64,000 nt of DNA from an uncultured Thiotrichales bacterium (lineage in GTDB: Bacteria; Pseudomonadota; Gammaproteobacteria; CAIRSR01). The stretch spans positions 4,693 through 68,692 of the forward strand of contig CAIRSR010000113.1 of NCBI GenBank assembly GCA_903881315.1, given 5' to 3'. Below, piece after piece: positions 15,201-36,381 of this stretch (position 1 is the stretch's first letter; every line of letters begins with the position of its first letter). Made by a program: the position numbers and the translations under genes. Below the pieces are notes generated by a model, which made no database searches, had not been told where the DNA came from, and worked only from the letters and a program-made list of their open reading frames with translations.

Positions 15201-16568
15201 GCGCTCGCGCGGGTGGTGCGCCGTGAACTACCGGCGTTGCGCTGTCAGCTCCTTGACCTTGAGGCAACCGAGGCGCGTGATGGCGACCTCCCATCGCTTG
15301 GGGACTATCCCGCCGAATTGGCCTGGCGTGATGGCCAGTTCTATCGGCCACTTCTGACACCCTATCGCCTCGCGCAAGGGGGGAAACTGTCCGCGCCGAT
15401 TTGCGCCGATCGCGGCTACCTCGTCACTGGTGGCCTCGGAACACTCGGGCTCTCGTGTGCGCAGTGGTTGGTTCAGCAGGGGGCGGGCATGGTGACGTTA
15501 CTGGGTCGTCGCCCCCCGAATGCCGAGCAGCAGGCGCAGCTTGCGCGGCTCGGTGAGGCGAAAACCATTATCCGGGTCGTTGCTGGGGACGTAACCGATG
15601 GTGTGGCGCTTCGAGCGCTCTGGCCTTCCTTGACTGGGGGAGTATTGCCGCTTGCGGGGGTCTTTCACCTGGCCGGTGTGCTGGATGATGGCCCGATCCT
15701 GCAGCAGACGTGGCAGCGCTTTCTGCCGGTGCTGGCACCGAAGGTTATCGGCAGTTGGCATCTGCACCAGTTGAGTCAGTCGCTTGCGCTGGATTATTTC
15801 GTTGCCTTTTCTTCGATAGCGCCCGTTGTTGGTTCTGCTGGTCAGGCGAGCTATGCCTTTGCCAATGGCTATCTGGATGGGCTGATGGCGAGCCGAAGTG
15901 GCGACGGGCTTGCGGGTCTCACTATCAACTGGGGGCCGTGGCGGGGTGGCATGGCGGCCTCGCTGACCCAGCGCTTTAGCGAGTGGGGCATAGAACTCCT
16001 CGACCCGATGCGGTCGTTTACCACCCTTGCGTCTCTCTCTGCAGCACCACCCGAGGGGGGAGAGGTCGCGGTCTTTCCGGTAGATTGGGGGCGGTTTATC
16101 AGCCGCAGTGGCGCGAATCCGCTCTACGACCACCTGAAGCCTGAGAGTGCTGCGGTAAGTGCCAGCACCACGACCCGCAGTTGGATGGATAGCCTCGCGG
16201 CAGCGGAGGGTGAGCAACGCTGGACAATGCTCGAGCAGTATCTTCGCGAGACGATTGCAACGACCGTTGGGCTCGCTGACGCCGACTCGTTTGCAGCACG
16301 GAAACGCTTGTTTGAGTTAGGGCTTGATTCCCTCGGTGCGGTAGAGCTGCGCAACCGCTTGGTGCAGATGCTTGGGCGTGATCTGCGCTCCACCCTGCTC
16401 TTCGACTACCCAACCCTCGCAGCACTCCTCGGCCACATCGGCAATGAGGTATTGGGCTGGCCGCACCAAGGGGCTGAGCCCGTAGCAGAGGTGGTGGCGC
16501 AAGTGGAGGCGTTGGATGCCCTCTCGGATGAGGCGTTAGCGGCCCTTTTGGCAGCAGAATTGGGTTAA
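9204..16568 (+). CDS. Type I PKS, loading plus module 1: FAAL-ACP-KS-AT-DH-KR-ACP
   Basis: FAAL: YLQYTSGSTSTPKGVMLTHRNI (9713-), GDLGF..GELYMTGREKDLLIVAGVNHYPQDIE. ACP0 Ser in FAEYGLSSRG (about 11094). KS: DTACSSSL (11781), HGTGT, NIGH. AT: GQGSQYSGMG (12883), GHSVGE (13127), SHPFHS. DH: HRVFGEVVVPAAGH (14019), LLDSALQ. KR: TGGLGTLG (15426), LDD motif, SSIA..YAFAN. ACP: LGLDSLG (16317). Confidence 0.95.
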   Translation: MDSVNGSCNNLVRLLRHWATTTPEALAYTFLKDGRDEGLRFTFQELDRQARAIAVSLSGAQGERALLLYPPGIEFLAGFFGALYAGVIAIPAPPPDAARLKRTLPRLHAIIHDAEASLVLATHDIVEALAKEMVPEEGAPSMRWFATDRADTTRADEWSGAPPIDDTTIAYLQYTSGSTSTPKGVMLTHRNIMAQSATLKAGFGYDRNSIAVTWMPYFHDYGLVDGLLQPLYNGIPCYVLSPLTFLRRPERWLEAISRFRGTHTQAPNFAYEQCIQKVSAAKRATLDLSCLREASNGAEPIRRDTVEGFINAFAECGLHSEAIYPAYGLAEATLQVTAKPHRTLPRYCYADAAALERNRIVVVSPDTAKANYRAIVSCGAPAPGVEVVIADLLTQRPLPDGMVGEIWAAGESIGAGYWRRPEESEATFAARLAGDTERGPFLRTGDLGFMLNGELYMTGREKDLLIVAGVNHYPQDIEWTVQNVDSAFRQDHCAAFSIEVEGEERVVVVAEMERRLDDWGELLVRVRRALSENHELDLYGLCLIKKGEVLKTSSGKLQRRGCRDAYLQNSLEAFFRWQRDAALPAPHQQGVGLATTSTRSALAIEQWLLAELARVLALPLGSIQRTTPFAEYGLSSRGAVALVGALEEWLGVAELPATLLWEYPTVAALRDYLLHGASTVASSALAPEATSDEALAIVGVACRFPGAADTEEFWDLLVNGRDAIREVPPTRWSVAEFYAEEAATPGHINNRFGGFLDEVAGFDAAFFGIAPPEATVMDPQQRLLLELCLEALEAANINPHTLAGSDAGVFIGISTDDYTEWQFSERNRISPYAGTGKALSIAANRISYQFDLHGPSMAIDTACSSSLVALHQAAQALRRNDCTLALVGGVNLLLSPKMSVALSQAQMLSPDGRCKAFDAAANGYVRSEGGGMLVMKRLADARRDGDTVLALLRGSAVNQDGRSNGLTAPNGLAQQAVIRRALQDARVAASAIRVVEAHGTGTALGDPIEVRSLQAVLGEGRSADQPCLIGSVKSNIGHLEAAAGMAGLIKLVLCIRHGQVVPTLHFKTLNPQIALHGTPFAIASQLQAWPNGERLASISSFGFGGTNAHAILSAPPDDGNGGLTPQGMAEVRTDHHLLLLSAHTRPALATLAKRYLGRLKQHEVALPSFCASAALGRAAWSERLALVAADGEALAAGLTDFVVQGATPVVRALDQRPKVAWLFTGQGSQYSGMGKALYRGEPVFRAEIERCNQVLAPLIGVSLTELLWDEHFAKQLDNTRYTQPALFALQVALARTLLHWGVQPDAVMGHSVGEYAAACIAGLFTVEEGLHLTAARGRLVDELGGAGGMVAVLGDESRVRAALVGIEGVELATLNGPAGQVIAGSHEALARATLHLEGLGLEVRPLVVSHPFHSVGMEPLEAPFAEVARGVRFQPPQIALISNLTADFASAEMAGADYWVAHLRQPVRFAASIERLIAHDFDTFIEIGPKPTLLGMAERIAHPEGVLWLPTLRPAEPDWQRLLTTLGRFWQRGGAVNWGAFYGRTPRLLLPHYPFERRRFWLDRPRERVAHEATSLLGEKIQSPLFAGTLFQNDFSLERLPFYGEHRVFGEVVVPAAGHLSLLLEAALALHGEPACELSNIIFPQPLILPEAGGRRVQLLVEKGANDAAQLRPFRLISSTPEGMATDAYETHASGVLGRATTTPLLGVTAFAAVSRDDGSVDDFYTSIWQPQIELGQTFRCIETLARRGSTAQARLRVPVERGPWSDLQLYPGLLDSALQVLAALVTLDASEAMIPFSIERLVYHGHGVQRPRCFWSEVMLQASDDPTIALANVRLWAELADGSHHLAAELQGFRARRVERDRLLRELRRGYQEHLYRVEWETVTVSVAPLAGRWLIFDDHAGRTSALVARHSRGVVVQTREELAAHLTAEGGDWCGVVFGAGLDLVGAPDAAALEPLLTLLLAVVEILAAEPLPLLVLTAGGQTLLGRSGEPLQRALWALARVVRRELPALRCQLLDLEATEARDGDLPSLGDYPAELAWRDGQFYRPLLTPYRLAQGGKLSAPICADRGYLVTGGLGTLGLSCAQWLVQQGAGMVTLLGRRPPNAEQQAQLARLGEAKTIIRVVAGDVTDGVALRALWPSLTGGVLPLAGVFHLAGVLDDGPILQQTWQRFLPVLAPKVIGSWHLHQLSQSLALDYFVAFSSIAPVVGSAGQASYAFANGYLDGLMASRSGDGLAGLTINWGPWRGGMAASLTQRFSEWGIELLDPMRSFTTLASLSAAPPEGGEVAVFPVDWGRFISRSGANPLYDHLKPESAAVSASTTTRSWMDSLAAAEGEQRWTMLEQYLRETIATTVGLADADSFAARKRLFELGLDSLGAVELRNRLVQMLGRDLRSTLLFDYPTLAALLGHIGNEVLGWPHQGAEPVAEVVAQVEALDALSDEALAALLAAELG

Positions 16569-16577
16569 TCTAGTGAC

Positions 16578-19500
16578 ATGAGCGCAACCAGTCCTGACTA
16601 CCGCGCCTTGATGACCAAGGCGCTGCTTGAGATCAAAGAACTAAAGTCGCAGTTGCAACAGGCGCGGATGCGCGATGGTGAGGCCATCGCGATCGTGGGT
16701 GCCGCCTGTCGTTTTCCCGGGGGCGCGAATACGCTTGCAGGCTATTGGGAACTACTGGTCAATGGCCGCGACGGGATTGTCCCGGTGCCTCCCGAGCGCT
16801 GGCCGGTGGACGCCCACTACGACCCCGACCCGGACGCCCCAGGCAAGATCTGCTCCCGAGAGGGGGGCTTTATCGACCAGCCGGTTGGGCATTTTGACGC
16901 CGCGTTCTTTTCTATCTCGCCGCGTGAGGCGGAAAGCATGGATCCGCAGCAGCGGCTCCTGCTCGAACTCTGCTGGGAGGCGTTGGAACACGCCAACTAT
17001 GTGCCAGAAAAACTCTTCCAGAGTAATAGTGGTGTTTTTATCGGCGCGAGCAGTCAAGACCACGCGACGCGCATTCTGGGGGAGGCACCTTTCACCGACA
17101 TTGATGGCTACTATGGGACGGGCAGCGCGGCCTCACCGATTGCTGGTCGCATCTCGTATCTCTTTGGGTTTACCGGCCCGAGTTTTGTTGTTGATACCGC
17201 TTGCTCCTCTTCGCTCCTGTCGTTGCATTTGGCCTGCGAGAGTCTGCGCCGCCGCGAGTGTGACCTCGCCCTTGGTGGTGGTATCCAGTTGCTCACGCAC
17301 CCGGGTATCTCGATTGCGTTTACCAAGGCGCATATGCTTTCGGTCGATGGTCGCTGCAAGACCTTTGATGCGGCGGCCAATGGCTATGCGCGCGGGGAGG
17401 GCGGCGGCATCGTTGTGCTCAAACGGCTAAGCGACGCCGTGCGCGACGGTGACACCATCCTCGCACTCATCAAAGGCTCAGCGGTCAACCAAGATGGCCC
17501 GAGCGGCGGTCTTACGGTGCCAAGCGGCCCCTCGCAAGAGGCGGTGATCCGCGAGGCCTTGCGGCGTGGCGCAGTAGACCCGTCGCAGGTCAATTTCATC
17601 GAGGCGCATGGTACTGGCACCCCCCTTGGTGACCCCATTGAGGTGGGCGCACTCCAAGGGGTGTTTGGCAACCACCGGAGCAGTATAAGCCCGCTCTGGA
17701 TGGCTTCGGTCAAGACCAACATCGGCCACCTTGAGGCCGGGGCTGGGATTGCGAGCGTCATCAAGGTGATGTTGTCGCTACGCGAGCGCACCCTGGCACC
17801 GCATCTCCATTTCAAAAACCCGAACCCGATGATCCCGTGGCAGCAGTTGCCGATTCGGGTGTTGACCGGGGCAGCGCCATGGCAGCCGGTGGCGGCGGGT
17901 GTGCCGCTGACGGCGGGGGTCAGTTCGTTTGGTTTTAGCGGCACCAATGTGCATGTGGTGATGAGCGAGGCCCCAATGGCGGCGTCTGTGACGCCACCAT
18001 TGCCGGTGGCGGAACCCCAGGCGGGTGGTGCGGTGGCCGAAGCGCCCACGCCAACTGGCGCACCGCTGCCCACCGACCAATTGCTGGTGTTGGCAGCCCG
18101 TAGCGAACCAGCGCTTCACGAGTTGGTGCAGCGCTACATCGTGCGTCTTGCGGACGCAGACGAGAGTACGTGGGCCTCTATTGCGCACACGGCGGCGGTG
18201 GGGCGCACCCATTTCGCGGAACGTCTGGCGCTTGCGGCAGCGAGTGCGAGCGAGGCGCGCCTGAGGTTGCAGGCGTTTGCAGAGAGTCGCGCCGAGGGGA
18301 GTATGCTCTGGCGGGGCACGGCACTAGAGGGGCGCTACCCCAAGGTGGCCTTGCTGTTTAGTGGTCAAGGCTCGCAGTACAGTGGGATGGGTGAGGCGCT
18401 CTATCGAACCGGGCCTATCTTTCGCGAGGTGATTGACCGCCTTTCGCGGGTGCTCGAACCGCTGCTCGGGCAATCTCTGCCCGCGCTATTGTTTGCGGGT
18501 GGCGCAACGCTTGATGAGACGGGTAATACCCAGCCCGCGTTGTACGCACTAGAGGTAGCGCTTGCGGCCCAGTGGCAGGCGTGGGGCGGTAAGATTGCGG
18601 CAGTCCTGGGTCACAGCGTTGGTGAATACGCCGCAGCCGCCGTGGCGGGGGTGTTCTCCCTAGAGGACGGCGCACGATTGATCGCCGAGCGGGCGCGTCT
18701 CATGCAGGCCTTGCCAGCGGGTGGCGGTATGGTCGCGGTGTTGACGGCCAGGGCCGAGGTAGAGGCGGTGCTTGGTTCTCTGGCGTTGCATGGGCTTGGT
18801 ATTGCTGCCGACAACGGCCCCCGCAGTGTCGTGGTCTCGGGTGGTGCCGGGGAACTTTCGCGCCTGCAAGGCCACTTTGCCGCGCTTGGCGTTGAGTGCC
18901 GACCCTTGGCGGTCTCACATGCCTTTCACTCCCCCTTGATGACGCCGATGTTGGCACCGTTTCGGGCGCGGGCAGAGACGATCGCGTATCACGCGCCGAG
19001 AATACCCATCTATAGCAATGTCACCGGACGATGTGAGCGCACGGAGCGGTTTTGCTCTGCCGATTACTGGGTAGAGCATATCCAAAGGCCGGTGTTGTTC
19101 CAGGAGGCGCTACGTGCCTTGCTTGCGGATGGTTGCAACCTGCTGGTGGAGGCCGGGCCACGGCCTACCCTTCTTGGTATGGGGCGGACGATCGCCGAGG
19201 CTCTGGGTCTGCCGCTTGCTGCCGATGCGGGTGCCTGGTTGCCGCTCCTGCGCCACGGGGAGCCTCCTTTGCAGCAGGCCCTCTCGACCCTGGGCGGCTA
19301 TTGGTGTCGCGGTGGTGCGCCGGACTGGTCGCGCCTCCGTGGTGTGCCGAGTGGTCGCGTGGAGTTGCCCACCTATCCTTTCCAGCGCCGTCGTCATTGG
19401 CGCGAGGTGGCCCTGAACGGCCAGCAGGGGGTGGGAGGTTTTCATGGCGAGCAGACAGTAAACCATCCTTTGTTGGCGCGTCGTTTCGCCTCGCCACTCA

Positions 19501-22181
19501 TCAGCGAGCGCCTCTACGAGACGCCGTTTAGTAAGAGCGCCTTACCACTCCTTGAGGATCACCGCATCTTTGGTGCGTTGGTGGTTGCGGGTGCCTCGCA
19601 CCTCTCGTTAATAATTGGCGCGGTACTGGTCGAGGATGCGGCCCTGCCGCTGCAACTGCAACGGGTGGTCTTTCCCCAGGCGTTGGTAGTCACTGAGGAC
19701 GGCGAGCGACGGGTGCAATTGCTCCTGACCCCAAAGGCAGAAGGTGGGCTAAGCCTTCGCCTGGTGAGCTTTGGTGAGGAGACAGAACCTGCAGTACACG
19801 CCATCGGTGAGCTGGTGCGGCAAACGTCGCTGCCCTTTACCCCCCTCGACTGGGCAGGGTTGGCCCGCCGCTGTAACGAGGCGATGGTCGCCGAGGAACT
19901 TTACCTGGCCCAAGCGCGGCGTCAGATCGTGGTGGGCTCGAGTTATCGCTGGTTGCGTGAGGTCTGGCGTGGTTCGGGTGAGGCGATTGCGACCCTAGCG
20001 GCCCCGCAAGAGAGTGCTGCCCGCTTCGAGTTGCACCCGGGGCTTATCGATAGTTGTTTTGGTCTGCTCGTGACAACGGCAACCCTTGCCGCAGAAGAAA
20101 CGGTCATCCCGTTTTCGCTTGAGTCACTCACCCTCTACCAGCGTGTGCCCAATGAACCGCTGCGTGCCCATGCGAGATTGCGCGAGGGTAGTCCCGAGGG
20201 GCAACGCCTGGTGGGTGACATCTGGTTGGAAACCCTGAGTGGCGAGCCGGTTGCGAGTTTTATTGGCCTAGAGGGGCGGAAGGCAAGCCGAATGGCGCTG
20301 ACGGCCCTCATCGACCCCAGTAGTCGCTGGTTGTATCGGCGCGAGTGGCAGGCGCTCACCTTGCCGGGGGTGCTGACCGGCTCGGGGGTGTGGCTTTTGT
20401 GTTGCGATGCTGGCGGTTGTGGTGCTGCCTTGGCGGAACTCTGGCGGGCGCTCGGGCGGCAGGTGATTACCGTGGTTGCGGGTGGCGCGTTGGCGCGCCT
20501 GGACGCCAATCACTATCAGGTAGATGCAAGCGATGTAGCGCAATTGTCGGGATTGTTTCAGCAGATCAATAGGCCGCTTGCTGGGGTCATCAACCTCTGG
20601 CCGTTGGATGGCGCGACCATCGACTGGGAGGCCGTCGAGGCGCAACAGCAATCGATCCTTGGCACCAGTCTTGCGCTGCTGCGGGCGATGGCGGCAGCGC
20701 GGGTAGTGTCGCCGCTTATCCTGGTCGGCAGCCAGGGCTGTGCGGTGGGCGCAATCGACGCCTTGCCTGCGCCGCAGATGTCAACATTGATGGGACTTGT
20801 GCGGAGTGCGGTTGCCGAATATCCCGAGTGGCGCGTAGCGGTCGTTGATCTTGATCGGTGTGGCGCGGGGGCCGCTCGGCAGTTGAGTGATGGGGTGGCC
20901 TCTGTCCTGGGGGGTAGTGAGTTGTTGGTCGCGTGTCGCGACGGGCGGTTCTATGGGGAGCGACTGCAGCCCTATCGGCTGGCCTCTTCGGCCACCAAGA
21001 CACTCGCCGCCGATCAAACCTATCTGATTACTGGTGGCACGGGTGCTTTGGGGCTCGCGGTCGCGGAATGGCTGGTCGAGCGGGGCGTGCGCTTTCTTTT
21101 GTTGCTGGCGCGTCGTGCCCCAGACTCATCGGCGCTGACGGCTATGCTGCGCTTGCGTGCGCTTGGCGCACGGGTTGAGGTTCGCCTGGTTGATGTCGGT
21201 GATTTCGCGGCCCTTAGTCAAATCTGGGCCGAGGTTGGCGCAATACTCCCGCCCCTCTGTGGTGTGGTGCATCTCGCGGGCCAACTGGATGATGCGCCGC
21301 TTGCCGAGATGGATTGGTCGCGGCTCTATCGGCCCTTGTCGGCGAAGCTTGCGGGTGCTTGGAACCTGCATCGTTTGACCAGGGGAATGCCGCTTGATCT
21401 GTTTGTGTTATTTTCCTCCATGACCGCACTGCTCGGCAGTCCGGCGCAGGGTAACTATGCGGCGGCCAATGCCGCGCTGGGTGCCCTGGCTGTACATCGC
21501 CATCGTGCGGGTCTTCCGGCGCTTGCGGTGCATTGGGGGCCGTGGGCGGAGATCGGCATGGCGGCGCGATTGGCTGCCCACAACCAAGAGCGTCTTGTGG
21601 CGCTTGGGATCGACTCCTTGCTACCCGCCCATGCGCTCCGTGTGCTGGGTGGATTGCTTGAGCAGCCGCATGTCGCAGAGGTCGCGGTCATGGCGATTGA
21701 CTGGGATCGCTACCCGGCTGCGGTAGCCCCCCTGACTGCCCATCTCTGCGAGCGCTCACCCGTCGTTGCGAGTGGCGGCGGTTTGCTACAGACCTTGAGT
21801 GATTTGCCGCTGGCGCGTCGTCGTCCCGAGTTGTTGCGTTACCTCGGCAATCTGTTGAAAGAGGTGTTGCGCATGGAGGCGGGTAGTCGTATCGACCCAC
21901 GGGAGCGGTTGTTTGACATCGGTGTCGATTCGCTAATGGCGTTGGAGCTAAAAAATCGTCTCCAGCGTGATCTCGCGCTGACGCTACGGGTAACGCTCCT
22001 GTTTGACTATCCAAGCCTTGAGGCGTTGACCAATTATCTGCTCGATGATCTACTGGCGGCAACATTGCGCCAAGATACTGGTGTGGCCGGGGCAGGGGAG
22101 ACCACCATCGAGGAGATGACGGACGAGGATGCCGAGGCAGAACTGCTGGCACAACTTGCGCAGTTGGAGGGGCTTTCGTAG
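16578..22181 (+). CDS. Type I PKS, module 2: KS-AT-DH-KR-ACP
   Basis: N-terminal docking-like helix LLEIKELKSQLQQ. KS: DTACSSSL (17204), HGTGT, NIGH. AT: GQGSQYSGMG, GHSVGE (18609), SHAFHS. DH: HRIFGALVVAGASH (19560), LIDSCFG. KR: TGGTGALG (21026), LDD, YAAAN. ACP: IGVDSLM (21918). Confidence 0.95.
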   Translation: MSATSPDYRALMTKALLEIKELKSQLQQARMRDGEAIAIVGAACRFPGGANTLAGYWELLVNGRDGIVPVPPERWPVDAHYDPDPDAPGKICSREGGFIDQPVGHFDAAFFSISPREAESMDPQQRLLLELCWEALEHANYVPEKLFQSNSGVFIGASSQDHATRILGEAPFTDIDGYYGTGSAASPIAGRISYLFGFTGPSFVVDTACSSSLLSLHLACESLRRRECDLALGGGIQLLTHPGISIAFTKAHMLSVDGRCKTFDAAANGYARGEGGGIVVLKRLSDAVRDGDTILALIKGSAVNQDGPSGGLTVPSGPSQEAVIREALRRGAVDPSQVNFIEAHGTGTPLGDPIEVGALQGVFGNHRSSISPLWMASVKTNIGHLEAGAGIASVIKVMLSLRERTLAPHLHFKNPNPMIPWQQLPIRVLTGAAPWQPVAAGVPLTAGVSSFGFSGTNVHVVMSEAPMAASVTPPLPVAEPQAGGAVAEAPTPTGAPLPTDQLLVLAARSEPALHELVQRYIVRLADADESTWASIAHTAAVGRTHFAERLALAAASASEARLRLQAFAESRAEGSMLWRGTALEGRYPKVALLFSGQGSQYSGMGEALYRTGPIFREVIDRLSRVLEPLLGQSLPALLFAGGATLDETGNTQPALYALEVALAAQWQAWGGKIAAVLGHSVGEYAAAAVAGVFSLEDGARLIAERARLMQALPAGGGMVAVLTARAEVEAVLGSLALHGLGIAADNGPRSVVVSGGAGELSRLQGHFAALGVECRPLAVSHAFHSPLMTPMLAPFRARAETIAYHAPRIPIYSNVTGRCERTERFCSADYWVEHIQRPVLFQEALRALLADGCNLLVEAGPRPTLLGMGRTIAEALGLPLAADAGAWLPLLRHGEPPLQQALSTLGGYWCRGGAPDWSRLRGVPSGRVELPTYPFQRRRHWREVALNGQQGVGGFHGEQTVNHPLLARRFASPLISERLYETPFSKSALPLLEDHRIFGALVVAGASHLSLIIGAVLVEDAALPLQLQRVVFPQALVVTEDGERRVQLLLTPKAEGGLSLRLVSFGEETEPAVHAIGELVRQTSLPFTPLDWAGLARRCNEAMVAEELYLAQARRQIVVGSSYRWLREVWRGSGEAIATLAAPQESAARFELHPGLIDSCFGLLVTTATLAAEETVIPFSLESLTLYQRVPNEPLRAHARLREGSPEGQRLVGDIWLETLSGEPVASFIGLEGRKASRMALTALIDPSSRWLYRREWQALTLPGVLTGSGVWLLCCDAGGCGAALAELWRALGRQVITVVAGGALARLDANHYQVDASDVAQLSGLFQQINRPLAGVINLWPLDGATIDWEAVEAQQQSILGTSLALLRAMAAARVVSPLILVGSQGCAVGAIDALPAPQMSTLMGLVRSAVAEYPEWRVAVVDLDRCGAGAARQLSDGVASVLGGSELLVACRDGRFYGERLQPYRLASSATKTLAADQTYLITGGTGALGLAVAEWLVERGVRFLLLLARRAPDSSALTAMLRLRALGARVEVRLVDVGDFAALSQIWAEVGAILPPLCGVVHLAGQLDDAPLAEMDWSRLYRPLSAKLAGAWNLHRLTRGMPLDLFVLFSSMTALLGSPAQGNYAAANAALGALAVHRHRAGLPALAVHWGPWAEIGMAARLAAHNQERLVALGIDSLLPAHALRVLGGLLEQPHVAEVAVMAIDWDRYPAAVAPLTAHLCERSPVVASGGGLLQTLSDLPLARRRPELLRYLGNLLKEVLRMEAGSRIDPRERLFDIGVDSLMALELKNRLQRDLALTLRVTLLFDYPSLEALTNYLLDDLLAATLRQDTGVAGAGETTIEEMTDEDAEAELLAQLAQLEGLS

Positions 22182-22232
22182 TTTGGTGAATTGCAGTCGT
22201 CGCGTCGCTCTCTGAATGGTTGGAGGTTGGCT

Positions 22233-24203
22233 ATGAAAAAAGCTCTGGTTGTTGTGGCCGTGATCGTGGCTATCGTGGTGGTCGGCGTTCTTGCGGTGCC
22301 GGTGTTGTTTTCGGCGGAGCGGGTCAAGACGGAACTGGTCGCCAAGGTGAAGGAAATGACCGGGCGCGACCTCACCATCGGTGGCAGGTTTGCGTTCTCG
22401 CTGCTGCCGACGCTTGGCGTACAGGCAGAGGGTCTGACGCTGGCTAATCCACCTGGCTATCGTTCGCCCGCCCTTCTTCAGCTCCGCGAACTGGATGCGC
22501 ACCTTAAGCTCTGGCCGTTGTTGATGGGCCGCTTCGAGCTGGATGGCGTTGTCCTGCGCGCCCCGACCATCTCCCTTGAGGTTGACGGGAACGGTCGCGG
22601 CAACTGGCTACTGACCAAAGCGGCGGTTGCACGAGCGGCAGAAACAAGTCCTCTGGCACCAGCAGCGCTCCCCCCCGTGCCCGCAAGTGCTGGCAAAGGG
22701 GCTGGTGGCGTGAAAGGGGTATCCGACGTTCGCTTGGGTGACGTTCGCATTGAGGCTGGTACACTCACCTACCTTGGCGATAAGGGCGTTACCGAGACCG
22801 CCGAGGGTGTGGATTTTGATCTCATCATGAATAGCCTGGACGAACCGCTGACGGTTAAGGGTGGGCTCATCTGGCATGGTCAGGCCCTCGCGGTGGACAT
22901 GACGTTTGCGAGGCCCCGTGCCCTTCTCGAAGGCCGCGACAGTGCGGGGAGTGTGAATCTCGCGTCCCAGTCGTTGCGCTTGGCCTTTGCTGGCTCTTTC
23001 GGTGGCGCGAGTACTGGGACGCTTGAGGTTACGTCACCGTCGTTGCGCTCGCTCGCCGCGTGGGTGGAGGGTAGGCCCGTGGCGAGTAGTGGCCTGGGCC
23101 CGTTCGCAATGAAGGCGCATGTGGCGGCGGATGCGGGGCTGCTTGCGCTTACGGATGTGATGCTTTCACTGGATGCAAGCAAGGCCACGGGCAGATTGTC
23201 GGCTGCACTGGGAGGCGCACGGCCCGCGATGAAGGGCCAGCTTGACCTCGAAACCCTTGATCTCACTCCCTATTCGACTCCAGAGGACAAGGCGGCTAGC
23301 AACGTGCCTGCTGCGCCGTCGGACGATCAGGCAATCATTAAGTCTCATTCAGACTGGAGTGATGACGCAATTGACGCCTCGCTGCTGCGCTCGGTCGATG
23401 CGGATGTCGCGCTCCATGCGGCCTCAATCCGCTTGCGGCAAGAAGAGGTGGGGCATAGCGCACTACAGGTCGCCCTCCATGACGGGAAGCTCACCGCTGT
23501 TCTTGCCGATACCGTGTTCTTTCAGGGCAAGGGCGCGGGACAGATTGCGTTGGATGGCACGGGGGTAGGCGTTCTGGCGGATGTCCAATTCGCGCTGACC
23601 GACGTACAGGCGGGGCATTTGCTTGCTGCTTTTGGCATTGGTTGGCTAGAGGGCGAGGCCAATACCGAGTGGCAACTCGCCCTGCACGGCGCGAGTCCGC
23701 GTCAGTTGGTCTCATCCCTTAGCGGAAAGGGGACGCTCATCTGTGAGAATGGCGCGGTTCGGGGCATCAATCTTGGCGCAGCGGGGCGCAATGCCGCGTC
23801 TGGCCGCTTACCGGATGGGCAAGACGCGCCAAAAACCGCCTTCTCTGATCTATCGGGTTCGTTCTCGATTGCGGATGGGGTAGTGACCAACCGTGATCTA
23901 AAGCTGAACGCGCCGCTGTTGCGGGTGACTGGTGCGGGGAGTGTTGACCTACCCAAACGCACGGTGCAGTACCGCATTGAGCCGACACTCCTCGCCAATC
24001 AGGAAGGGCAAGGTAAACCGAAGGGTGACGGTGGACTCACGGTGCCGATCATCGTCGATGGTTCACTAGATGAGGTGCATTTCCGCCCCGACCTCGAGAG
24101 CCTTGCGAAGAGCAAGGCCGTATCTGGCGTGAGAGACTTTCTAAAGCACCAGACCTTGCCGAAGGGTTTGCCGTTCGATCCAGCCAAGTTGTTTGGCCAA
24201 TGA
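22233..24203 (+). CDS. asmA: AsmA-family envelope protein
   Basis: GGAGG lies 6 nt before ATG 22233. N-terminal anchor MKKALVVVAVIVAIVVVGVLAV. AsmA-like N-terminus (VKEMTGRDLTIGG..LLPTLGVQAEGLTLANPPG...LKLWPLL.GRFELDGVVL) and C-terminus (GSFSIADGVVTNRDLKLNAPLLRVTGAGSVDL). Same strand and same high GC as the flanking PKS genes. Confidence 0.8.
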   Translation: MKKALVVVAVIVAIVVVGVLAVPVLFSAERVKTELVAKVKEMTGRDLTIGGRFAFSLLPTLGVQAEGLTLANPPGYRSPALLQLRELDAHLKLWPLLMGRFELDGVVLRAPTISLEVDGNGRGNWLLTKAAVARAAETSPLAPAALPPVPASAGKGAGGVKGVSDVRLGDVRIEAGTLTYLGDKGVTETAEGVDFDLIMNSLDEPLTVKGGLIWHGQALAVDMTFARPRALLEGRDSAGSVNLASQSLRLAFAGSFGGASTGTLEVTSPSLRSLAAWVEGRPVASSGLGPFAMKAHVAADAGLLALTDVMLSLDASKATGRLSAALGGARPAMKGQLDLETLDLTPYSTPEDKAASNVPAAPSDDQAIIKSHSDWSDDAIDASLLRSVDADVALHAASIRLRQEEVGHSALQVALHDGKLTAVLADTVFFQGKGAGQIALDGTGVGVLADVQFALTDVQAGHLLAAFGIGWLEGEANTEWQLALHGASPRQLVSSLSGKGTLICENGAVRGINLGAAGRNAASGRLPDGQDAPKTAFSDLSGSFSIADGVVTNRDLKLNAPLLRVTGAGSVDLPKRTVQYRIEPTLLANQEGQGKPKGDGGLTVPIIVDGSLDEVHFRPDLESLAKSKAVSGVRDFLKHQTLPKGLPFDPAKLFGQ

Positions 24204-24305
24204 TCGGTCGAAAAGGGCAGTAGGGAAACTACGCCGACACCGCTGCCTGGGGCGATGCTTGCGGCGCACTGATTCAACCAGAGAAAAAGGCAGAAGCCAA
24301 CCAAT

Positions 24306-27300
24306 ATGACGCAGAAACCGGAACTTTCTCCGACCAAACGGGCGTTGCTGGCGCTACAAGAAATGCAGGCAAAGGTGGCGCGGTTGGAGAGCCAGCAGCG
24401 CGAACCGATCGCTGTGGTGGCGATGGCGTGCCGTTTTCCTGGGGGTGCCAATACCCCGGAGGCGTTTTGGCAGATGCTCTGCGAGGCGCGTGATGCGATC
24501 ACCGAGATACCCCCCGAGCGTTGGGACGTGGAGGCCTACTATGACAAAGACCCCAATGTCCCAGGCAAGATGTACACCCGCTTTGGTAGTTTCTTAAGCG
24601 CGATTGATGCGTTTGACCCGATCTTTTTTGGCATTACCCCGCGTGAGGCGCACTCCATCGACCCCCAGCACCGCTTGTTGCTACCGGTGACCTGGGAGGC
24701 GCTAGAGAATGGTGGTTTTGATGTCAACGCCTTGTACGGTAGTCGCACCGGCGTCTATGTCGGGATTAGTAATTTCGAGTATGGCGCGGCCCTCTGGTCG
24801 GATAGCCCGGAGCGGATCAGCGCCTATTCTGGCACCGGTGGTTCGCTCGGGGTGGCTGCGGGTCGTTTGTCCTATACGTTTGGGTTCACCGGCCCGAGCA
24901 TGATCATCGATACCGCCTGTTCCTCGTCGCTCGTCACCACCCACCTCGCGATGCAGGCATTGCGGCTTGGGGAGTGTGATCTCGCGATCAGTGCTGGCGT
25001 CAATCTCATCTACGGCCCAGAGACCCATATCAATTTCTGTAAGGCGCGGATGCTGGCTGCCGATGGCCACTGCAAGACCTTCTCTGCCGCCGCCGATGGC
25101 TACGCCCGAGGGGAAGGGGTCGGGGTCTTGGTGTTGAAGCGTCTAAGCGACGCTAAACGCGATGGCGATACGGTGCTTGCCTTATTGCGGGGTTCGGCAG
25201 TCAATCAGGATGGGCCGAGTGGCGGCCTTACCGTGCCGAACGGGCCGTCGCAGGTCAAGGTGATCCGCGCTGCCCTGGCGAGTGGCGAGATTCACCCTGA
25301 TCAAGTGGGCTACCTAGAGGCCCACGGTACGGGTACAGCACTCGGCGATCCGATCGAGATGGGGGCGCTTGCGACTGTCTTTGGGTTGCGCAAGACGCCG
25401 CTCCGTGTTGCCTCGGTGAAGACCAATGTGGGGCATTTGGAGTCGGCGGCGGGTATCGCGGGGTTGATCAAGGCCGTCCTTTCGGTGCAACACGGGGCGA
25501 TTGCGCCGCATCGCAATTTCGAGCAACCAAGCCCGCATATCGACTGGGCGTCAATCTCGGTTGCAATCCCTACGGCCCTCACCGAGTGGCCAGATCCGGT
25601 GCGGATTGTCGGGGTTAGCTCCTTTAGTTTTAGTGGCACCAATGCCCATGTGGTGGTGTCGAATGATGTTCCCGTGGGCGCGACCGTTGAAGCGCTTACA
25701 CACGAGCCGTCCCCGCTGGTTGCGCCAACGACCTGGCCCGCAACGCGCCTGCTCGCGTTGTCGGCGAAGAGTAGTGCTGGGCTACAGGCGTTGGCTGCGC
25801 GGGTCGCAGATGACCTGGAGCGTCGCCCGAGCAACGCCTGGCATGGCTACTGTGTCGCGGCTGCCCGTGGGCGCGGTCACTATAGCCATCGTCTCACGTT
25901 ACTCGCCGACACCCCAGCGGCTGCCGCCACACGGTTGCGAGTGGGTGAGGCGCAGACCAGTCGCCGTCCGGTGAATCCGCCGCGCATCGCCTTTCTGTTT
26001 ACTGGACAGGGTGCGCAGTATCTCCAGATGGGGCGAGAACTCTATGAACAAGAGCCTTATTTTCGGTCGATTTTAGAACAATGCGAGGCCATCGCGAGTC
26101 CGCTGATTGGGCGTTCGTTGCTCGGGCTGTTGTATCCCGCGCCCGAGGCGGCGACACCCGAGGCGGAGGCCCTACTGGCCGCGACCGAGTATACCCAGCC
26201 TTTGCTGTTCGCAATCGAATATGGGTTGGCACAGTTGTGGCGGCATTGGGGTATCGAGCCGGAGGCGCTGATTGGTCATAGTGTCGGCGAGTTGGTGGCG
26301 GCGACGGTTGCGGGTCTCTGGACGCTAGAAACCGGGTTGACCTTAACCTGTGCGCGGGGTCGTCTGCTCGCAGCCTTGTGTTCGCCGGGTGCGATGGCCT
26401 CTGTCCCGTTAAGCTCGGCGGCGGTCAGTGCCCGTTTGGCGACCTATCGCGAGCGGGCGAGCGGGGTGGTGCTTGCGAGCATCAACGGCCCTGAGAGTGT
26501 CGCGGTCGCGGGAAGTGCCGCTTCTCTCAACGCGCTCATTGCGGCGCTTGCCGCCGAGGGGATTGAGGCTAAGCCATTACGGGTCTCCCACGCCTTTCAT
26601 TCGCCGCTCGTTGAGCCCATGATCGCGGCGTTTCGGGCGGAACTTGGCTCGGTGAGGTTTGCGACCCCAACCATCCCGATTCTCTCTAACCTCAATGGTG
26701 AGTTTGCTGACCCGCAGGTGCTTGCTACTCCCGCTTACTGGTGCCGACATCTCCGTGAACCGGTGCGTTTTGCCGATGGGTTGGCGCGACTGTTGGCGGA
26801 GGGTTTCGATACCTTTATTGAAGTAGGCCCAAAGCCAACCCTCTGTGCCTTTGGGATGGCGCAAGCGGAGGCTCTTGGGATGACGGCGAGCTGGTTGCCG
26901 AGCTTGCGCTATCGCGTCGAACCCTGGCGGCAGTTGTTGCTTAGTCTTGGCGAACTCTATCGTCTTGGTCTGGATGTGGCCGCCTCGGCGCTGGCGCAGG
27001 GGGGGCCGCGCTATCCGCTCAGATTGCCGAATATGCCGTTCCAGACCGATCACTACTGGCTAGAGAAACCAGCAGAGCGGGTGCGCCTGCGTGGTGGTCA
27101 TCCGCTGCTGGGCGAGCGGCTTGAGACGCCGTTGCTTGCAGCGGGTGGGGTATTGTTTGTCAATGAACTCTCCGCCGAGAGTTTTCTTGCCCACCACCAG
27201 ATCTTTGGCCAGGTCGTGTTGCCTGCAGCGGGGCATATGGAGATGGCGTTGGCGGCGGCGGGGGCGTTGCTGCCGAACGGCGCGTGGCTCCGCGAGGTCA

Positions 27301-30300
27301 CTATCCAGCGGGCGCTCGTCCTGCCAGTCGCGGCTGCGCTGCCCGTGCAGATGGTGTTGCAAGCGAGCGCGGATGGCTACCGCTTTACCATCTATGCGCC
27401 GACCGAGGGCGTTCCCGGGGCTACTTGGCAGCCGTATTCCGCAGGCGAGTTGGTCGCGGGGGTCTTGCCGCTTCGCCCCATGATTACGCTGGATGAGATG
27501 CGAGCGCACTGTGATGAGGCGTTTCCGGTTAGCGAATACTATCGGCTGGCGCACTCGGTGGGGATTGCCCACAGCGCAGACTTCCAGGCGCTGACCGGTC
27601 TCTGGCGTGCGCCGGATGCGGTGCTGGCGAGGATTGAACTGCCGCCTGCGCTGGCGGGGGAGGCGGGCGCGTTTCGGTTGCATCCGGTGCTCTTGGATGC
27701 GGCCTTTCAGGCGGCGAGTGTGTTGCTGCTCGCGCGCGGTGTTACCTACCTGCCGGTCGGTCTTGCCGAGTTACAGACTACCCGCCCGTTGCCCAAACAG
27801 TTGTGGTGCTGGGTCACGGCGCAGGCGGGCGCGGAGGACGCACGGTTGTTTCTGGCTGACCTGCAATTGTTCGATGATGAGGGTGAGCAGATTGCTGAGG
27901 TGCGCGGGCTTTGCTTCCAGCAGGTTGATGTCCACGTCCTCACCGACGCCAGGCGGCGCTATGGGTCGTGGCTCTACCAGATTGCCTGGGAGACGCAACC
28001 GCTCTTTGGTGTGCAGCCACCGTGCTCACCGCCACAATTGGGTGTCGCGCTCGCCGAGGCAACGCGCGAACTGGTGCCGCAGTGCGCGTTTTATCAGCCG
28101 TTTTTGGCGGGTCTTGAGCAGTTGGCGGGCGGCTATATCCAACAAGCGCTACAGCAGTGTGGTTGGCAGCCAGCGCCGAACAGTGTCTTTACTACCCCTG
28201 CCTTGGCCAAACAACTCGGTGTGCAAGAGTCCTTTGCTGCGTTGTTTGAGCGCTGTCTCGCCATCCTCGCCGAGGACGGTGTTCTCCGCCGCGAGGCCGA
28301 CCAGTGGCGGGTAGTGACGCCCCTTGTGGCGTTGTCTCCTGCTGTGGTCGAGGCATTGCGTCTGCAGTATCCGGCGGCGCTGCCGGAGATTACGCTCTTG
28401 GAGCGTTGCGCGAGCGTTCTTGCTGGTGTGTGGCGTGGTGAGGTCAATCCACTGCATCTCTTGTTCCCAGAAGGTTCGCTTTCGGTCACGACGTTGCTCT
28501 ACCAGCATTCGGTGGGGGCGCGGATCATCAATGATCTGCTGGCGTCTGCGGTGCAACGAGCGGTTGCGGGTCTGCCGACAACCCAGGGCATTCGCATCCT
28601 AGAGATCGGCGGCGGCACCGGTGGCACCACGACGCGCTTGTTGCCACTGCTTCCGGTGGGGCGTAGCGATTATCTGTTTACTGACATCTCGACCTACTTT
28701 ACCAACCATGCCAAGCAGCAGTTTGGCGGCGAGTATGGCTTTGTCCGTTACGGATTGCTCGATATTGAGAAATCACCACCGGCGGAACTGTGCGGCCAGT
28801 TTGACCTTGTCGTTGCCGCGAATGTGGTACACGCCACCCGTGTGCTTGGCGAGACCCTGGCCCATTGCGCGGAACTGCTGGCCCCAGGCGGGATGTTGGT
28901 GCTCCTCGAGGCAGAGGCCCGCCAACGCTGGCTCGATCTCACTTTTGGCATGACCGACGGTTGGTGGCGCTTTATCGGTAGCGACCCGTTCCGCGCTGAT
29001 TATCCCCTCTTGACGACCGAGCAATGGCGTACATTACTGCCAACCTGTGGGTTTGATGGGGTGACGATACTCGGGCCCGATCAATACAGCGAAGCGGCAC
29101 AGTTACGCCAAAACATCGTTCTCGCACGACGCGCTCTGCGGGAGGTTGCTCTCCCGCCCCGTCTTGCGCTGGGTCGTTGGTTGATTGTTGGCGACAGTGG
29201 GCCCGGGGGGGTTGGCGCACTCTTGGCCGAGCGCTGTGTCGGACGCGCAACGCTGGTTGCCCGTGACGCTTTTCTTAGCAACAGTGCCGCATTGTTGGCA
29301 GAACCGCTCGCGGGGGTTGTGTTGGTGTATGCCCTCGAAGAAGACACGCCCCTCGAAGCGCCCCAAGCACTGCTTCATGCACAAGAGCGTATCAGTACGC
29401 CGTTGTTGCGGTTGTTGCAGGGTTTGGGGAATGAGCGGACGTGCGCATTGTGGGTGGTCACCCGTGCGGCGATAGCCGTACCGTCCGATCCGTCTTGCGA
29501 GGCTTCCGACTTGGCGCGTGACGCACAAGGTCTGGTGCAGACCGTGCTGCATGGCCTGATGCGCAGTGCCGTTGTCGAATATCCGCAATTACAAACGGTG
29601 GTTCTCGACCTCCCCGCCGCTGAAAGCAAGGCCGCGAGCGCCGAGCGCGTCTGGCGCGAGTTTGCCGCAGCGCAACAACCCGAGGAGGTGGTGGTGCTGC
29701 GCGATGCGGGTCGGTTCGTGCGTCGGCTGCAACGCGATGACGCCCAACCCGTCGCGAAACGCTTGAGTCTTAGCGCCGAGGCTTCTTATCTCATTACGGG
29801 TGGTCTTGGTGACCTTGGGCTGCTCGTGGCGCACTACCTAGTAGAGCAGGGGGCACGCTACCTGGTCTTGCTCGGGCGGAATGGGCCGCGTGAGAGTGCG
29901 AAGGCAAGTCTCGCGGCACTCGAAGCGGCTGGGGCTGTGGTCGAGATTGCAACGCTTGATATTACCGATGACCTCGCGCTTCAGGCCTTGCTCGCATTGC
30001 CTCGGCCACCCCTGCGTGGGGTTGTCCATGCGGTTGGTGCGCTTAGCAACGGCGCTTTGGCGACAATGGACTGGCCGAGGCTTGCGTCCGTCTTGAGCGC
30101 CAAGGTGTTGGGTGGCTGGAACTTACACCAGGCAACCGAGACGTTGCCGCTTGATTTCTTTATCCTATTTTCTTCGATCAGCTCAGTATTCTGGTCGGAG
30201 GCGCAAGGCAACTATGCTGCCGCCAATGCCTTTCTTGATGAGCTGGCGGGATTCCGAGAGCAACGACAACTGCCCGCACTCGTGATCAACTGGGGCGCTT

Positions 30301-30965
30301 GGTCGGAGATTGGTCTTGCGGCCCGCACCGGCGCGTTGGCCCACGCGACGGGGCAGGGTGTCGCGGCGATTCGGCCAGACGACGGCATCGCCCTTTTCGA
30401 CCTGCTCTGGCAGCGGCAAGGGCAGGTGATAGTAACGTCGGTGGACTGGCCGAACCTGCTCCGGCAACTACCAAAGCCAATGCCGTTGGTAGAGCACTTT
30501 AGGGACAAGCAGGCAGCGGCGGTTGTTGCGGCAATGGGAGGTAGCGCTTGGCTTACGCAGTTGCGTACACTGCCAACGAACGAACAGCGTGCGGTATTGC
30601 TCGATCGCGTGCGCGAAGAGGTTGCGCGGGTGATTGGTGGTAGCGCCTCCCAGCTCGACGATCAGACCGGGTTTTTCGATCTAGGGGTTGATTCTCTGAC
30701 CGCAGTAGAGTTACGCAATGCCTTGCAGGCGGCTTTACCAGTAAACTTACCGGCAACGCTGTTGTTTAAGTATCCGAACATTGCTGCGCTGGCTGCCTTC
30801 TTGGCGACCGAACTGCTAAGTGAGGGGTCGCCTCCGGTGGCTCCTCCCCAAGTTGCTGTTGCTTCCGCAGCGCCGACGACTGCCGCGCTTGAGGTTGGCA
30901 GCATGTCGGAGGCGGAGCTAGAGGCCTTGATCAATGATGAATTCGCTAATCTCAACGAGTATTGA
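24306..30965 (+). CDS. Type I PKS, module 3: KS-AT-DH-cMT-KR-ACP
   Basis: Docking-like LLALQEMQAKVARLE. KS: DTACSSSL (24909), HGTGT, NVGH. AT: GQGAQYLQMG, GHSVGE (26274), SHAFHS. DH: HQIFGQVVLPAAGH (27193), LLDAAFQ. C-methyltransferase SAM motif ILEIGGGTGGTT (28596). KR: TGGLGDLG (29793), no LDD. ACP: LGVDSLT (30680). Confidence 0.95.
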   Translation: MTQKPELSPTKRALLALQEMQAKVARLESQQREPIAVVAMACRFPGGANTPEAFWQMLCEARDAITEIPPERWDVEAYYDKDPNVPGKMYTRFGSFLSAIDAFDPIFFGITPREAHSIDPQHRLLLPVTWEALENGGFDVNALYGSRTGVYVGISNFEYGAALWSDSPERISAYSGTGGSLGVAAGRLSYTFGFTGPSMIIDTACSSSLVTTHLAMQALRLGECDLAISAGVNLIYGPETHINFCKARMLAADGHCKTFSAAADGYARGEGVGVLVLKRLSDAKRDGDTVLALLRGSAVNQDGPSGGLTVPNGPSQVKVIRAALASGEIHPDQVGYLEAHGTGTALGDPIEMGALATVFGLRKTPLRVASVKTNVGHLESAAGIAGLIKAVLSVQHGAIAPHRNFEQPSPHIDWASISVAIPTALTEWPDPVRIVGVSSFSFSGTNAHVVVSNDVPVGATVEALTHEPSPLVAPTTWPATRLLALSAKSSAGLQALAARVADDLERRPSNAWHGYCVAAARGRGHYSHRLTLLADTPAAAATRLRVGEAQTSRRPVNPPRIAFLFTGQGAQYLQMGRELYEQEPYFRSILEQCEAIASPLIGRSLLGLLYPAPEAATPEAEALLAATEYTQPLLFAIEYGLAQLWRHWGIEPEALIGHSVGELVAATVAGLWTLETGLTLTCARGRLLAALCSPGAMASVPLSSAAVSARLATYRERASGVVLASINGPESVAVAGSAASLNALIAALAAEGIEAKPLRVSHAFHSPLVEPMIAAFRAELGSVRFATPTIPILSNLNGEFADPQVLATPAYWCRHLREPVRFADGLARLLAEGFDTFIEVGPKPTLCAFGMAQAEALGMTASWLPSLRYRVEPWRQLLLSLGELYRLGLDVAASALAQGGPRYPLRLPNMPFQTDHYWLEKPAERVRLRGGHPLLGERLETPLLAAGGVLFVNELSAESFLAHHQIFGQVVLPAAGHMEMALAAAGALLPNGAWLREVTIQRALVLPVAAALPVQMVLQASADGYRFTIYAPTEGVPGATWQPYSAGELVAGVLPLRPMITLDEMRAHCDEAFPVSEYYRLAHSVGIAHSADFQALTGLWRAPDAVLARIELPPALAGEAGAFRLHPVLLDAAFQAASVLLLARGVTYLPVGLAELQTTRPLPKQLWCWVTAQAGAEDARLFLADLQLFDDEGEQIAEVRGLCFQQVDVHVLTDARRRYGSWLYQIAWETQPLFGVQPPCSPPQLGVALAEATRELVPQCAFYQPFLAGLEQLAGGYIQQALQQCGWQPAPNSVFTTPALAKQLGVQESFAALFERCLAILAEDGVLRREADQWRVVTPLVALSPAVVEALRLQYPAALPEITLLERCASVLAGVWRGEVNPLHLLFPEGSLSVTTLLYQHSVGARIINDLLASAVQRAVAGLPTTQGIRILEIGGGTGGTTTRLLPLLPVGRSDYLFTDISTYFTNHAKQQFGGEYGFVRYGLLDIEKSPPAELCGQFDLVVAANVVHATRVLGETLAHCAELLAPGGMLVLLEAEARQRWLDLTFGMTDGWWRFIGSDPFRADYPLLTTEQWRTLLPTCGFDGVTILGPDQYSEAAQLRQNIVLARRALREVALPPRLALGRWLIVGDSGPGGVGALLAERCVGRATLVARDAFLSNSAALLAEPLAGVVLVYALEEDTPLEAPQALLHAQERISTPLLRLLQGLGNERTCALWVVTRAAIAVPSDPSCEASDLARDAQGLVQTVLHGLMRSAVVEYPQLQTVVLDLPAAESKAASAERVWREFAAAQQPEEVVVLRDAGRFVRRLQRDDAQPVAKRLSLSAEASYLITGGLGDLGLLVAHYLVEQGARYLVLLGRNGPRESAKASLAALEAAGAVVEIATLDITDDLALQALLALPRPPLRGVVHAVGALSNGALATMDWPRLASVLSAKVLGGWNLHQATETLPLDFFILFSSISSVFWSEAQGNYAAANAFLDELAGFREQRQLPALVINWGAWSEIGLAARTGALAHATGQGVAAIRPDDGIALFDLLWQRQGQVIVTSVDWPNLLRQLPKPMPLVEHFRDKQAAAVVAAMGGSAWLTQLRTLPTNEQRAVLLDRVREEVARVIGGSASQLDDQTGFFDLGVDSLTAVELRNALQAALPVNLPATLLFKYPNIAALAAFLATELLSEGSPPVAPPQVAVASAAPTTAALEVGSMSEAELEALINDEFANLNEY
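28390..29085 (+). other. C-methyltransferase domain inside PKS3 (approximate bounds)
   Basis: Class I SAM fold: ILEIGGGTGGTT, DYLFTDIS, FDLVVAANVVHAT, LLAPGGMLVLLE. Located between DH and KR. Confidence 0.8.
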
Positions 30966-35265: not shown

Positions 35266-36123
35266 ATGAATAATAACACCGTGGGTGTTGTTGGTGCTGG
35301 GGTTATGGGTAGTGGTGTTGCGCAGAATCTGGCGCAGAGCGGTTTTACTGTCGTACTGATCGATATTAATGAGAAGGTATTGCAACGTACCGAGGCAGAG
35401 ATTCGTAAGAATGTTCGCTTCTCGGCGTTTTATGCAAAGGATAAAACGAAGGTTGAATCAGTGGAGACGGTCTTAGGTCGCATCGAGTTTACGACGGATT
35501 ACAGTAAACTCGCGACTGCCTATTTTATTGTTGAGAATGCCTCGGAGATATGGGAGGTAAAGCAGGCGGTCTATCCGTTGATTGATAAATATGCGCCGCC
35601 CGAGGCGCGCGTTGCTGCTGATACCTCGTGTTTTTCGATTACTCGTTTGGCCTCATTGACCGCACGGCCCGACAAGATCATCGGTATGCACTTTATGAAT
35701 CCGGTGCCAATGAAGACCACCGTCGAGGTGATCAAGGGGTATCACACCAGTCCTGAGACCATTACGATTGGTCTTGATTTTCTGGCGCGGATGGGTAAGG
35801 ACGGGATTGTTGTTAATGATGCTCCGGGTTTTGTTTCTAATCGGGTGCTGATGCTTACGGTGAATGAGGCAGTCTTTGTGGTTCATGATGGGGTTGCGAC
35901 GGCGGCCCAGGTCGATGAAATACACCGCAAATGTTTTGGGCATAAAATGGGGCCCCTAGAGACAGCCGACCTGATCGGCCTAGATACGATCCTTTATTCA
36001 GTGGAAGTGCTTTGGGAGAGTTATAATGATAGCAAATATCGTCCGTGTCCATTGCTAAAGAAAATGGTTGCCGCCGGTTTACTGGGGCGTAAGAGTGGCG
36101 AAGGTTTCTACAAATACAAGTGA
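35266..36123 (+). CDS. 3-hydroxyacyl-CoA/ACP dehydrogenase (FkbK/ZmaG-like)
   Basis: GGGAG RBS. Rossmann motif VGVVGAGVMGSGVAQNLA. HFMNPVP, DAPGFVSNRV, GPLETADLIGLD. Confidence 0.85.
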   Translation: MNNNTVGVVGAGVMGSGVAQNLAQSGFTVVLIDINEKVLQRTEAEIRKNVRFSAFYAKDKTKVESVETVLGRIEFTTDYSKLATAYFIVENASEIWEVKQAVYPLIDKYAPPEARVAADTSCFSITRLASLTARPDKIIGMHFMNPVPMKTTVEVIKGYHTSPETITIGLDFLARMGKDGIVVNDAPGFVSNRVLMLTVNEAVFVVHDGVATAAQVDEIHRKCFGHKMGPLETADLIGLDTILYSVEVLWESYNDSKYRPCPLLKKMVAAGLLGRKSGEGFYKYK

Positions 36124-36134
36124 AAGAGTGAAAC

Positions 36135-36368
36135 ATGAGTACAATTGAAGACGCGGTGCGGAGTTTTCTCGGGCAGTTCGTCAGTGATCCGGATGTCGAG
36201 GGCGATCACGATCTGTTTAGTTCCGGCATGGTAAATTCTCTGTTTGCCATGCAGTTGGTGCTATTCGTTGAGAAGCAATATGGTATCACGGTGGCAAACG
36301 AGGATCTTGATTACGAGAATTTTAAATCAGTGAATGCCATTGTCGGTTTTATCCAGTCAAAGCAGTAA
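36135..36368 (+). CDS. Discrete acyl carrier protein (FkbJ/ZmaD-like)
   Basis: 77 aa and acidic. Helix II motif SSGMVNSLFAMQLVLFVE (Ser in NSL as the putative phosphopantetheine site). Sits between the two dehydrogenase genes. Confidence 0.75.
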   Translation: MSTIEDAVRSFLGQFVSDPDVEGDHDLFSSGMVNSLFAMQLVLFVEKQYGITVANEDLDYENFKSVNAIVGFIQSKQ

Positions 36369-36381
36369 TGGGAGTAGCGTG

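Follow-up and report, generated by a model that had tools for sequence, protein, structure and literature searches.

An intact AsmA-family gene between two polyketide synthase genes of an uncultured Thiotrichales bacterium and its absence from readable junctions of related clusters

The AsmA-like proteins TamB, YhdP and YdbH are modelled as bridges that are anchored in the inner membrane and that carry a hydrophobic groove; they are redundant and are jointly required for outer-membrane lipid homeostasis (PMC8593681, PMC8912898, PMC10345924). Diffusion of lipid acyl chains through the hydrophobic groove has been proposed as the mechanism by which the three proteins act (PMC8593681, PMC8912898). 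The short AsmA-type paralogues of E. coli, including AsmA (617 aa), YhjG and YicH (clan CL0401), begin with a helix in the inner membrane, after which come a beta-groove in the periplasm and a YhdP-like C-terminal tail, and the function of E. coli AsmA itself is undetermined (PMC10345924). A functional analogy for the coupling of polyketide-lipid synthesis to export is provided by the mycobacterial PpsE-MmpL7 system, in which the transporter of a lipidic polyketide is encoded with, and acts with, the synthase (PMC1238737). A literature search for asmA within polyketide or other biosynthetic clusters found no such case, with the matches consisting of ansamitocin asm genes and unrelated items.

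We analyzed a 64,000-nucleotide stretch of DNA (the window) from contig CAIRSR010000113.1 of an uncultured Thiotrichales bacterium, in which an asmA gene lies between the second and third of four large polyketide synthase (PKS) genes (Table 1). The initial annotation had placed an intact asmA reading frame 52 nt after PKS2 and 102 nt before PKS3; the frame and the second distance were confirmed, whereas the first distance was measured as 51 nt. A TTG start codon at 22191, which would extend the protein by 14 residues, was rejected, having no backing from homologues. An independent contig of 44.6 kb, belonging to a different assembly, repeats the gene order PKS1-PKS2-asmA-PKS3-PKS4, which rules out an assembly chimera or artefact. 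The insertion of asmA is cleanly intergenic, with both PKS frames and their docking tails intact: the acidic COOH-terminal tail of PKS2 is retained despite the insertion, as is the NH2-terminal helix of PKS3 (ALLALQEMQAKVARLE), which aligns with its counterparts in the related clusters L090 and L091. Scrutiny of the surroundings of asmA for target-site duplications, inverted repeats and mobile-element remnants yielded only matches of chance length (10–24 nt).

Table 1 Features of the PKS cluster and of the asmA gene in the window.
Feature	Position	Strand	Basis
PKS1: FAAL-ACP-KS-AT-DH-KR-ACP	9204..16568	+	Pfam
PKS2: KS-AT-DH-KR-ACP, docking tail at C-terminus intact	16578..22181	+	Pfam
PKS2-asmA spacer, 51 nt, contains GGAGG	22182..22232	+	sequence
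Shine-Dalgarno GGAGG, six nt 5' of the asmA ATG	22222-22226
asmA: ATG at 22233, TGA at 24203, 656 aa, intact	22233..24203	+
N-terminal hydrophobic helix of AsmA, residues 2-25, KKALVVVAVIVAIVVVGVLAVPVLF	22236..22307	+	sequence; AF2 helix
asmA-PKS3 spacer, 102 nt	24204..24305	+	sequence
PKS3: KS-AT-DH-cMT-KR-ACP, docking helix at N-terminus intact	24306..30965	+	Pfam
PKS4: KS, ~500 aa without Pfam match (Ala/Pro-rich), AT, no ACP	30962..35245	+	Pfam
Accessory genes: 3-hydroxyacyl-CoA dehydrogenase, ACP, acyl-CoA dehydrogenase, FkbH-like HAD, 391-aa protein	35266..39821	+	Pfam, ORF list
77-aa ACP among the accessory genes	36135-36368	+	Pfam/ORF list

The asmA protein matched the Pfam family AsmA (PF05170) with an E value of 2.6e-42 and 145.9 bits, against a gathering cutoff of 29.8, and the match fell into two stretches that correspond to the N- and C-terminal parts of the protein. 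DUF748 gave a weak match below the Pfam threshold, and the YhdP C-terminal model a below-cutoff match over approximately the 50 last residues. The best NCBIfam model was that of the AsmA equivalog (NF008091), with a score of 85.6 bits that lies below its cutoff of 412, and TIGR02099 (YhdP), which covered about 50 C-terminal residues, reached 16 of the 519 bits required. Judged by these profile matches, the protein is a member of the AsmA family (PF05170, clan CL0401) but not an equivalog of E. coli AsmA, to which it is similar in length and in its layout of helix, groove and tail, and from which it also differs in being encoded inside a PKS operon.

A structure model of the asmA protein was obtained with AlphaFold2 (AF2) on an alignment of homologues (mean pLDDT of 75, pTM of 0.63). 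It consists of a helix at residues 2 to 25, which is the predicted inner-membrane anchor, followed almost entirely by beta-strand. In a Foldseek search of the PDB with this model, the bridge-like lipid transfer protein LPD-3 (9cap) ranked first (E of 6.3e-07, probability of 1.00) and was the sole match below an E value of 0.001, with the TamB chains of TamAB (9xdc, 9xdd) ranking second and third. The TM-scores were low, at 0.13 to 0.26, which fits long flexible models without proving them. An elongated beta fold of the groove type is supported by the model. The N- and C-terminal AsmA motifs described in the initial annotation were recovered by Pfam and its anchor by the AF2 model, and in the comparison with TamB that it had proposed, the predicted fold resembled those of LPD-3 and TamB. 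The window protein has its superfamily and predicted groove fold in common with TamB, YhdP and YdbH. TamB and YhdP, however, are roughly 1260 aa long, about twice the length of the window protein, which has no TamA or YnbE partner nearby; a gene for a TamA, YnbE or OmpA-type partner was not found in the window. The gene product falls outside the envelope-spanning TamB/YhdP class, for which either a size of at least some 1200 aa or an adjacent gene for a known outer-membrane partner would be expected.

In a full-length alignment with 19 homologues, the asmA protein retained all 53 of 53 invariant columns. Private changes at otherwise invariant columns numbered three, compared with zero to two in close relatives and five to eight in distant ones. 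Clustering at 90% identity grouped three strain variants, each set apart by one residue. The M333 variant (P0086) is the one encoded in the window, and three contigs, all of different length, carry members of this protein cluster. On these sequence grounds, asmA is free of decay and probably functional. The full-length reading frame with all invariant residues kept, the confident AF2 model, the independent contig with the same gene order and the recovery of the protein cluster on three contigs all speak against a non-functional passenger or an assembly artefact, an explanation in whose favor the arrangement is known from one species only and which we consider highly improbable.

All five genes lie on the + strand and, as the initial annotation had stated, they are similar in composition: asmA has a GC content of 0.61 and a GC3 of 0.66, compared with a GC3 of 0.68 to 0.69 for PKS1 to PKS3. 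This likeness in GC3 would be accounted for equally by a long stay next to the PKS genes and by a GC-rich donor, and is not decisive. Taken together, PKS1 to PKS4 and asmA have GC values of 0.60 to 0.63 and GC3 values of 0.63 to 0.69, and the adjoining downstream accessory genes have values of 0.47 to 0.52 and 0.44 to 0.59, respectively; this compositional step falls inside one cluster (9204-39821), the accessory genes being syntenic in relatives. A consensus scan of positions 21500-25000 revealed no promoter-like site on the + strand and no terminator in either of the spacers that flank asmA, and the two + strand terminator-like matches within the asmA coding sequence did not exceed the number found in shuffled sequences. 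Folding z-scores relative to shuffled sequence were -0.93 for the 51-nt spacer and +0.85 for the 102-nt spacer, with neither being stable. Given that the spacers contain no terminator, promoter or stable structure, co-transcription of asmA with the PKS genes, which the initial annotation had taken as almost certain, is plausible.

Searches with PKS2 and PKS3 identified orthologues at 69–72% and 50–55% identity overall, those of PKS2 at 72% (P0088, P0089) and 53–54% (P0094, P0095) and those of PKS3 at 72%, 69% and 53–55%. The asmA gene was found at none of the five readable PKS2/PKS3 junctions (L090, L091, L092, L093 and L094), a count that omits the two closest relatives (69–72% PKS identity), whose contigs break 88 to 180 nt from the junction. 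Three of the five (L090, L091 and L093) are located in otherwise syntenic clusters. Full synteny, comprising PKS1 to PKS4 and the accessory genes, was observed for L090 (Logan SRR33871321) and in the same order for L091 (Logan SRR33123890), and in both of these clusters PKS2 and PKS3 overlap at the sequence TAATG. L093, from a JGI metagenome, contains PKS2, PKS3, PKS4 and the dehydrogenase, with a gap of 2 nt at the junction. At the remaining two junctions, a PKS2-like gene is followed by a PKS3-like gene after about 36 nt (L094, JGI metagenome) or 49 nt (L092, complete genome CP032507 of Ectothiorhodospiraceae bacterium BW-2). In addition, tblastn analysis with six diverse queries (E ≤ 1e-3) detected no AsmA-family homologue in any of 86 related PKS loci, amounting to 1.2 Mb. 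A further PKS2-like gene with 72% identity (P0089) was not counted as a syntenic junction, being followed by OsmC and an RND pump and not by PKS3. This second KS-AT-DH-KR-ACP gene (L086, L087; ERZ1426612) originates from the sample of the window's contig, and its locus may represent a paralogous cluster or a different organism.

The absence of asmA from all readable related clusters suggests that the gene was inserted in one lineage and does not belong to the pathway as an inherent means of export. We therefore lean, by a little more than an even chance, toward an ordinary short AsmA-type gene for lipid handling that entered the PKS operon in a single lineage, where it would now be expressed along with the PKS genes. 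The gene would have entered the intergenic point between PKS2 and PKS3 in this lineage only and would have separated a pair that, in the homologous clusters with a readable junction, abut or overlap. It would then ride on the PKS transcript. Its product most likely still acts as short AsmA-family proteins would, with an inner-membrane anchor and a periplasmic beta-groove that carries lipid acyl chains, and would contribute to outer-membrane lipid homeostasis. On this reading, the link between asmA and the polyketide is positional and recent, and it is neither ancestral nor conserved in this type of cluster.

Dating of the insertion narrowly to one species is made less secure by the two closest PKS relatives, both of which break at the junction. 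In the first of these, the metagenome-assembled genome (MAG) GCA_963575715.1, the PKS2 orthologue stops 88 nt short of a contig end and the PKS3 orthologue begins 137 nt into another contig. The tail of the former contig (L088) and the head of the latter (L089) do not overlap and are AT-rich and non-coding, which indicates that the tight junction is not kept in this genome and that sequence could lie between its PKS2 and PKS3 orthologues. The same contig ends carry a repeated element: a 31-nt sequence (TAGGAGTTACGCAGTTGAACTTGTAACTCTA) with a second, partial copy nearby is present just 3' of the PKS2 orthologue (L088, 10093-10150), and a copy of approximately 87% identity is present just 5' of the PKS3 orthologue (L089, 70-100), so that the element sits exactly where both contigs end. 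This element is absent from the window. In the other close relative (ERZ1426842), a 48-codon gene fragment at the start of the contig precedes the PKS3 orthologue. The insertion could thus be somewhat older than one species.

A search of 5.8 billion clustered proteins found nothing closer to the window AsmA than 53–54% identity beyond its own cluster, and no AsmA protein with 55–90% identity to that of the window was found, a result that argues against, without excluding, a hidden orthologue in the sampled PKS relatives. The nearest homologues, of 50–54% identity, have non-PKS genes as neighbours. One of them (P0002, 54%) is encoded by the same MAG, GCA_963575715.1 (labelled Gammaproteobacteria bacterium), in the order FliI-like ATPase, asmA, histidine kinase. 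It is the only close asmA detected in that genome, and its 30-kb contig is free of PKS genes; the orthologues of PKS2 (72%) and PKS3 (69%) are located on other contigs. A neighbour-joining tree placed the window AsmA as sister to P0002, with the window branch somewhat longer; a longer branch would fit a changed function of asmA. An alignment scan of 185,579 species genomes returned 80 asmA loci, mainly from Rhodospirillales and other Alphaproteobacteria, with both of its search motifs being ones from which the window AsmA (AFSDLSGSF, NGAVRGINL) departs. P0002 and the alphaproteobacterial, Rhodospirillales-type proteins P0003 to P0014 share 40–54% full-length identity and the invariant residues with the window protein, from which they differ in that their genes have non-PKS neighbourhoods. 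More broadly, tblastn with the window KS and AT domains (E ≤ 1e-10) found such domains at none of 85 loci of asmA relatives, within up to 10 kb on each side. Three loci with relatives of 48–53% identity have the order epimerase, Lgt, asmA, 190-aa protein, OmpA. This order was rejected as a conserved housekeeping neighbourhood, being present at only five to six of the 85 loci, with OmpA at 22 of them. The neighbourhood of the asmA subfamily is variable and is without PKS genes throughout these 85 loci.

The sister relation of the window AsmA to P0002 could also mean that the window gene is the sole housekeeping asmA of its host, relocated as the vertical counterpart of P0002, so that its position would have no meaning for the pathway. 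The MAG that encodes P0002 also holds the 69–72% PKS orthologues, and the protein search gave no further close asmA that shares the source of the window, both of which fit such a relocation. The identity of 54% is, however, low compared with 69–72% for the PKS orthologues, a divergence that is uncalibrated by housekeeping pairs, and we judge this explanation to be quite improbable. It is in any case a sub-case of insertion in one lineage and not a true alternative to it.

Two observations weigh against the insertion reading: all three strain variants retain an intact asmA preceded by a good Shine-Dalgarno sequence, and the GC3 of the gene is PKS-like. A gene of neutral effect that uncoupled the translation of PKS3 from that of PKS2 might have been expected to be lost. 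These features can be read instead as recent recruitment, in which the AsmA-type protein would serve as a periplasmic conduit through which the fatty-acyl polyketide leaves the inner membrane and reaches the outer one; we regard this as unlikely, although less so than relocation. That co-transcription would match conduit supply to polyketide production is a part of the same proposal and is similarly doubtful. Retention of a conserved, intact frame in the three strain variants, even though its insertion interrupted translational coupling, is in keeping with recruitment, as are the tight placement of asmA on the same strand without a terminator, the agreement of its GC3 with that of the PKS genes and the longer branch of the window AsmA relative to its sister P0002. 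The FAAL loading domain points to a lipid-like product, proteins of the family move lipids through a hydrophobic groove (PMC8593681, PMC10345924), and PpsE-MmpL7 is a precedent for coupling of polyketide-lipid synthesis to export (PMC1238737). MmpL7, on the other hand, is an RND transporter with another fold and with an experimentally shown role, whereas the association of asmA with PKS genes in the window is non-conserved and its functional meaning putative. The absence of asmA from the readable junctions and from all 86 PKS loci weighs against recruitment, given that the pathway works elsewhere without asmA, and so does the absence of PKS genes near the 85 asmA relatives. The length of 656 aa places the protein in the short class, and the cluster already contains an ABC transporter (2099-3787). 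The initial annotation had viewed asmA as a dedicated part of the assembly line and had suggested that homologous PKS operons be inspected for its retention; its absence from all five readable junctions, and the lack of any such pairing at the 86 PKS loci and the 85 asmA loci, run counter to that view.

Its suggestion of a fatty-acyl product fared better: because PKS1 opens with a loading domain of the fatty-acyl-AMP-ligase type, a lipid-like polyketide product is reasonable as judged from domain content. The KR-ACP end of a further PKS is present at 8-916, upstream of PKS1, and the PKS cluster reaches past the start of the window. The region upstream of PKS1 (1-8803) also encodes a DUF697 protein, the ABC transporter mentioned above, a type II thioesterase (3784-4509), an APS kinase (4787-5407), an SPFH/Band 7 protein and a periplasmic binding protein; sulfation of the polyketide and its export through the ABC transporter are possible. 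Downstream of PKS3, the PKS4 protein of the window, at 1427 aa, is longer than its orthologues (1232 to 1388 aa), the genes for which come after PKS3 in every case (L089, L090, L091 and L093). The accessory genes showed 55–81% identity by tblastn to those of L090 and L091, with the order kept and with a counterpart of about 390 aa for the 391-aa protein. The cassette at 35266-38621 (dehydrogenase, ACP, acyl-CoA dehydrogenase, FkbH-like HAD) occurs in the same order in L090, L091, L133 and L147. We take this cassette to be a gene set for hydroxymalonyl- or methoxymalonyl-ACP extender units (FkbH/I/J/K); an O-methyltransferase gene is absent beside it.

Elsewhere in the window, positions 55239-61442 (– strand) encode a 2067-aa protein that consists almost entirely of TPR repeats and that has a weak match to an FkbM-type methyltransferase at its COOH-terminus. 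Two adjacent genes for GTPase and DUF697 proteins, the listed frames of which overlap by approximately 130 nt, are located at 48328-51367 (– strand), and a third, small DUF697 protein is encoded near the PKS cluster at 1386-1943 (+ strand).

We class the asmA gene of the window as a new member of a known family, found in a position that is unusual and non-conserved, and position in a biosynthetic operon does not by itself show a role in the pathway. If the polyketide were carried by this protein, no AsmA-like protein before it would have been dedicated to a secondary metabolite in place of a phospholipid. Such a role would mean that AsmA-like grooves can specialise beyond bulk phospholipid, and the locus, with cargo and conduit expressed together, would be a natural model that bears on the role of short AsmA paralogues. 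On present evidence, the main value of the locus is as an example of a clean gene insertion between two formerly coupled PKS genes, neither of which was damaged.
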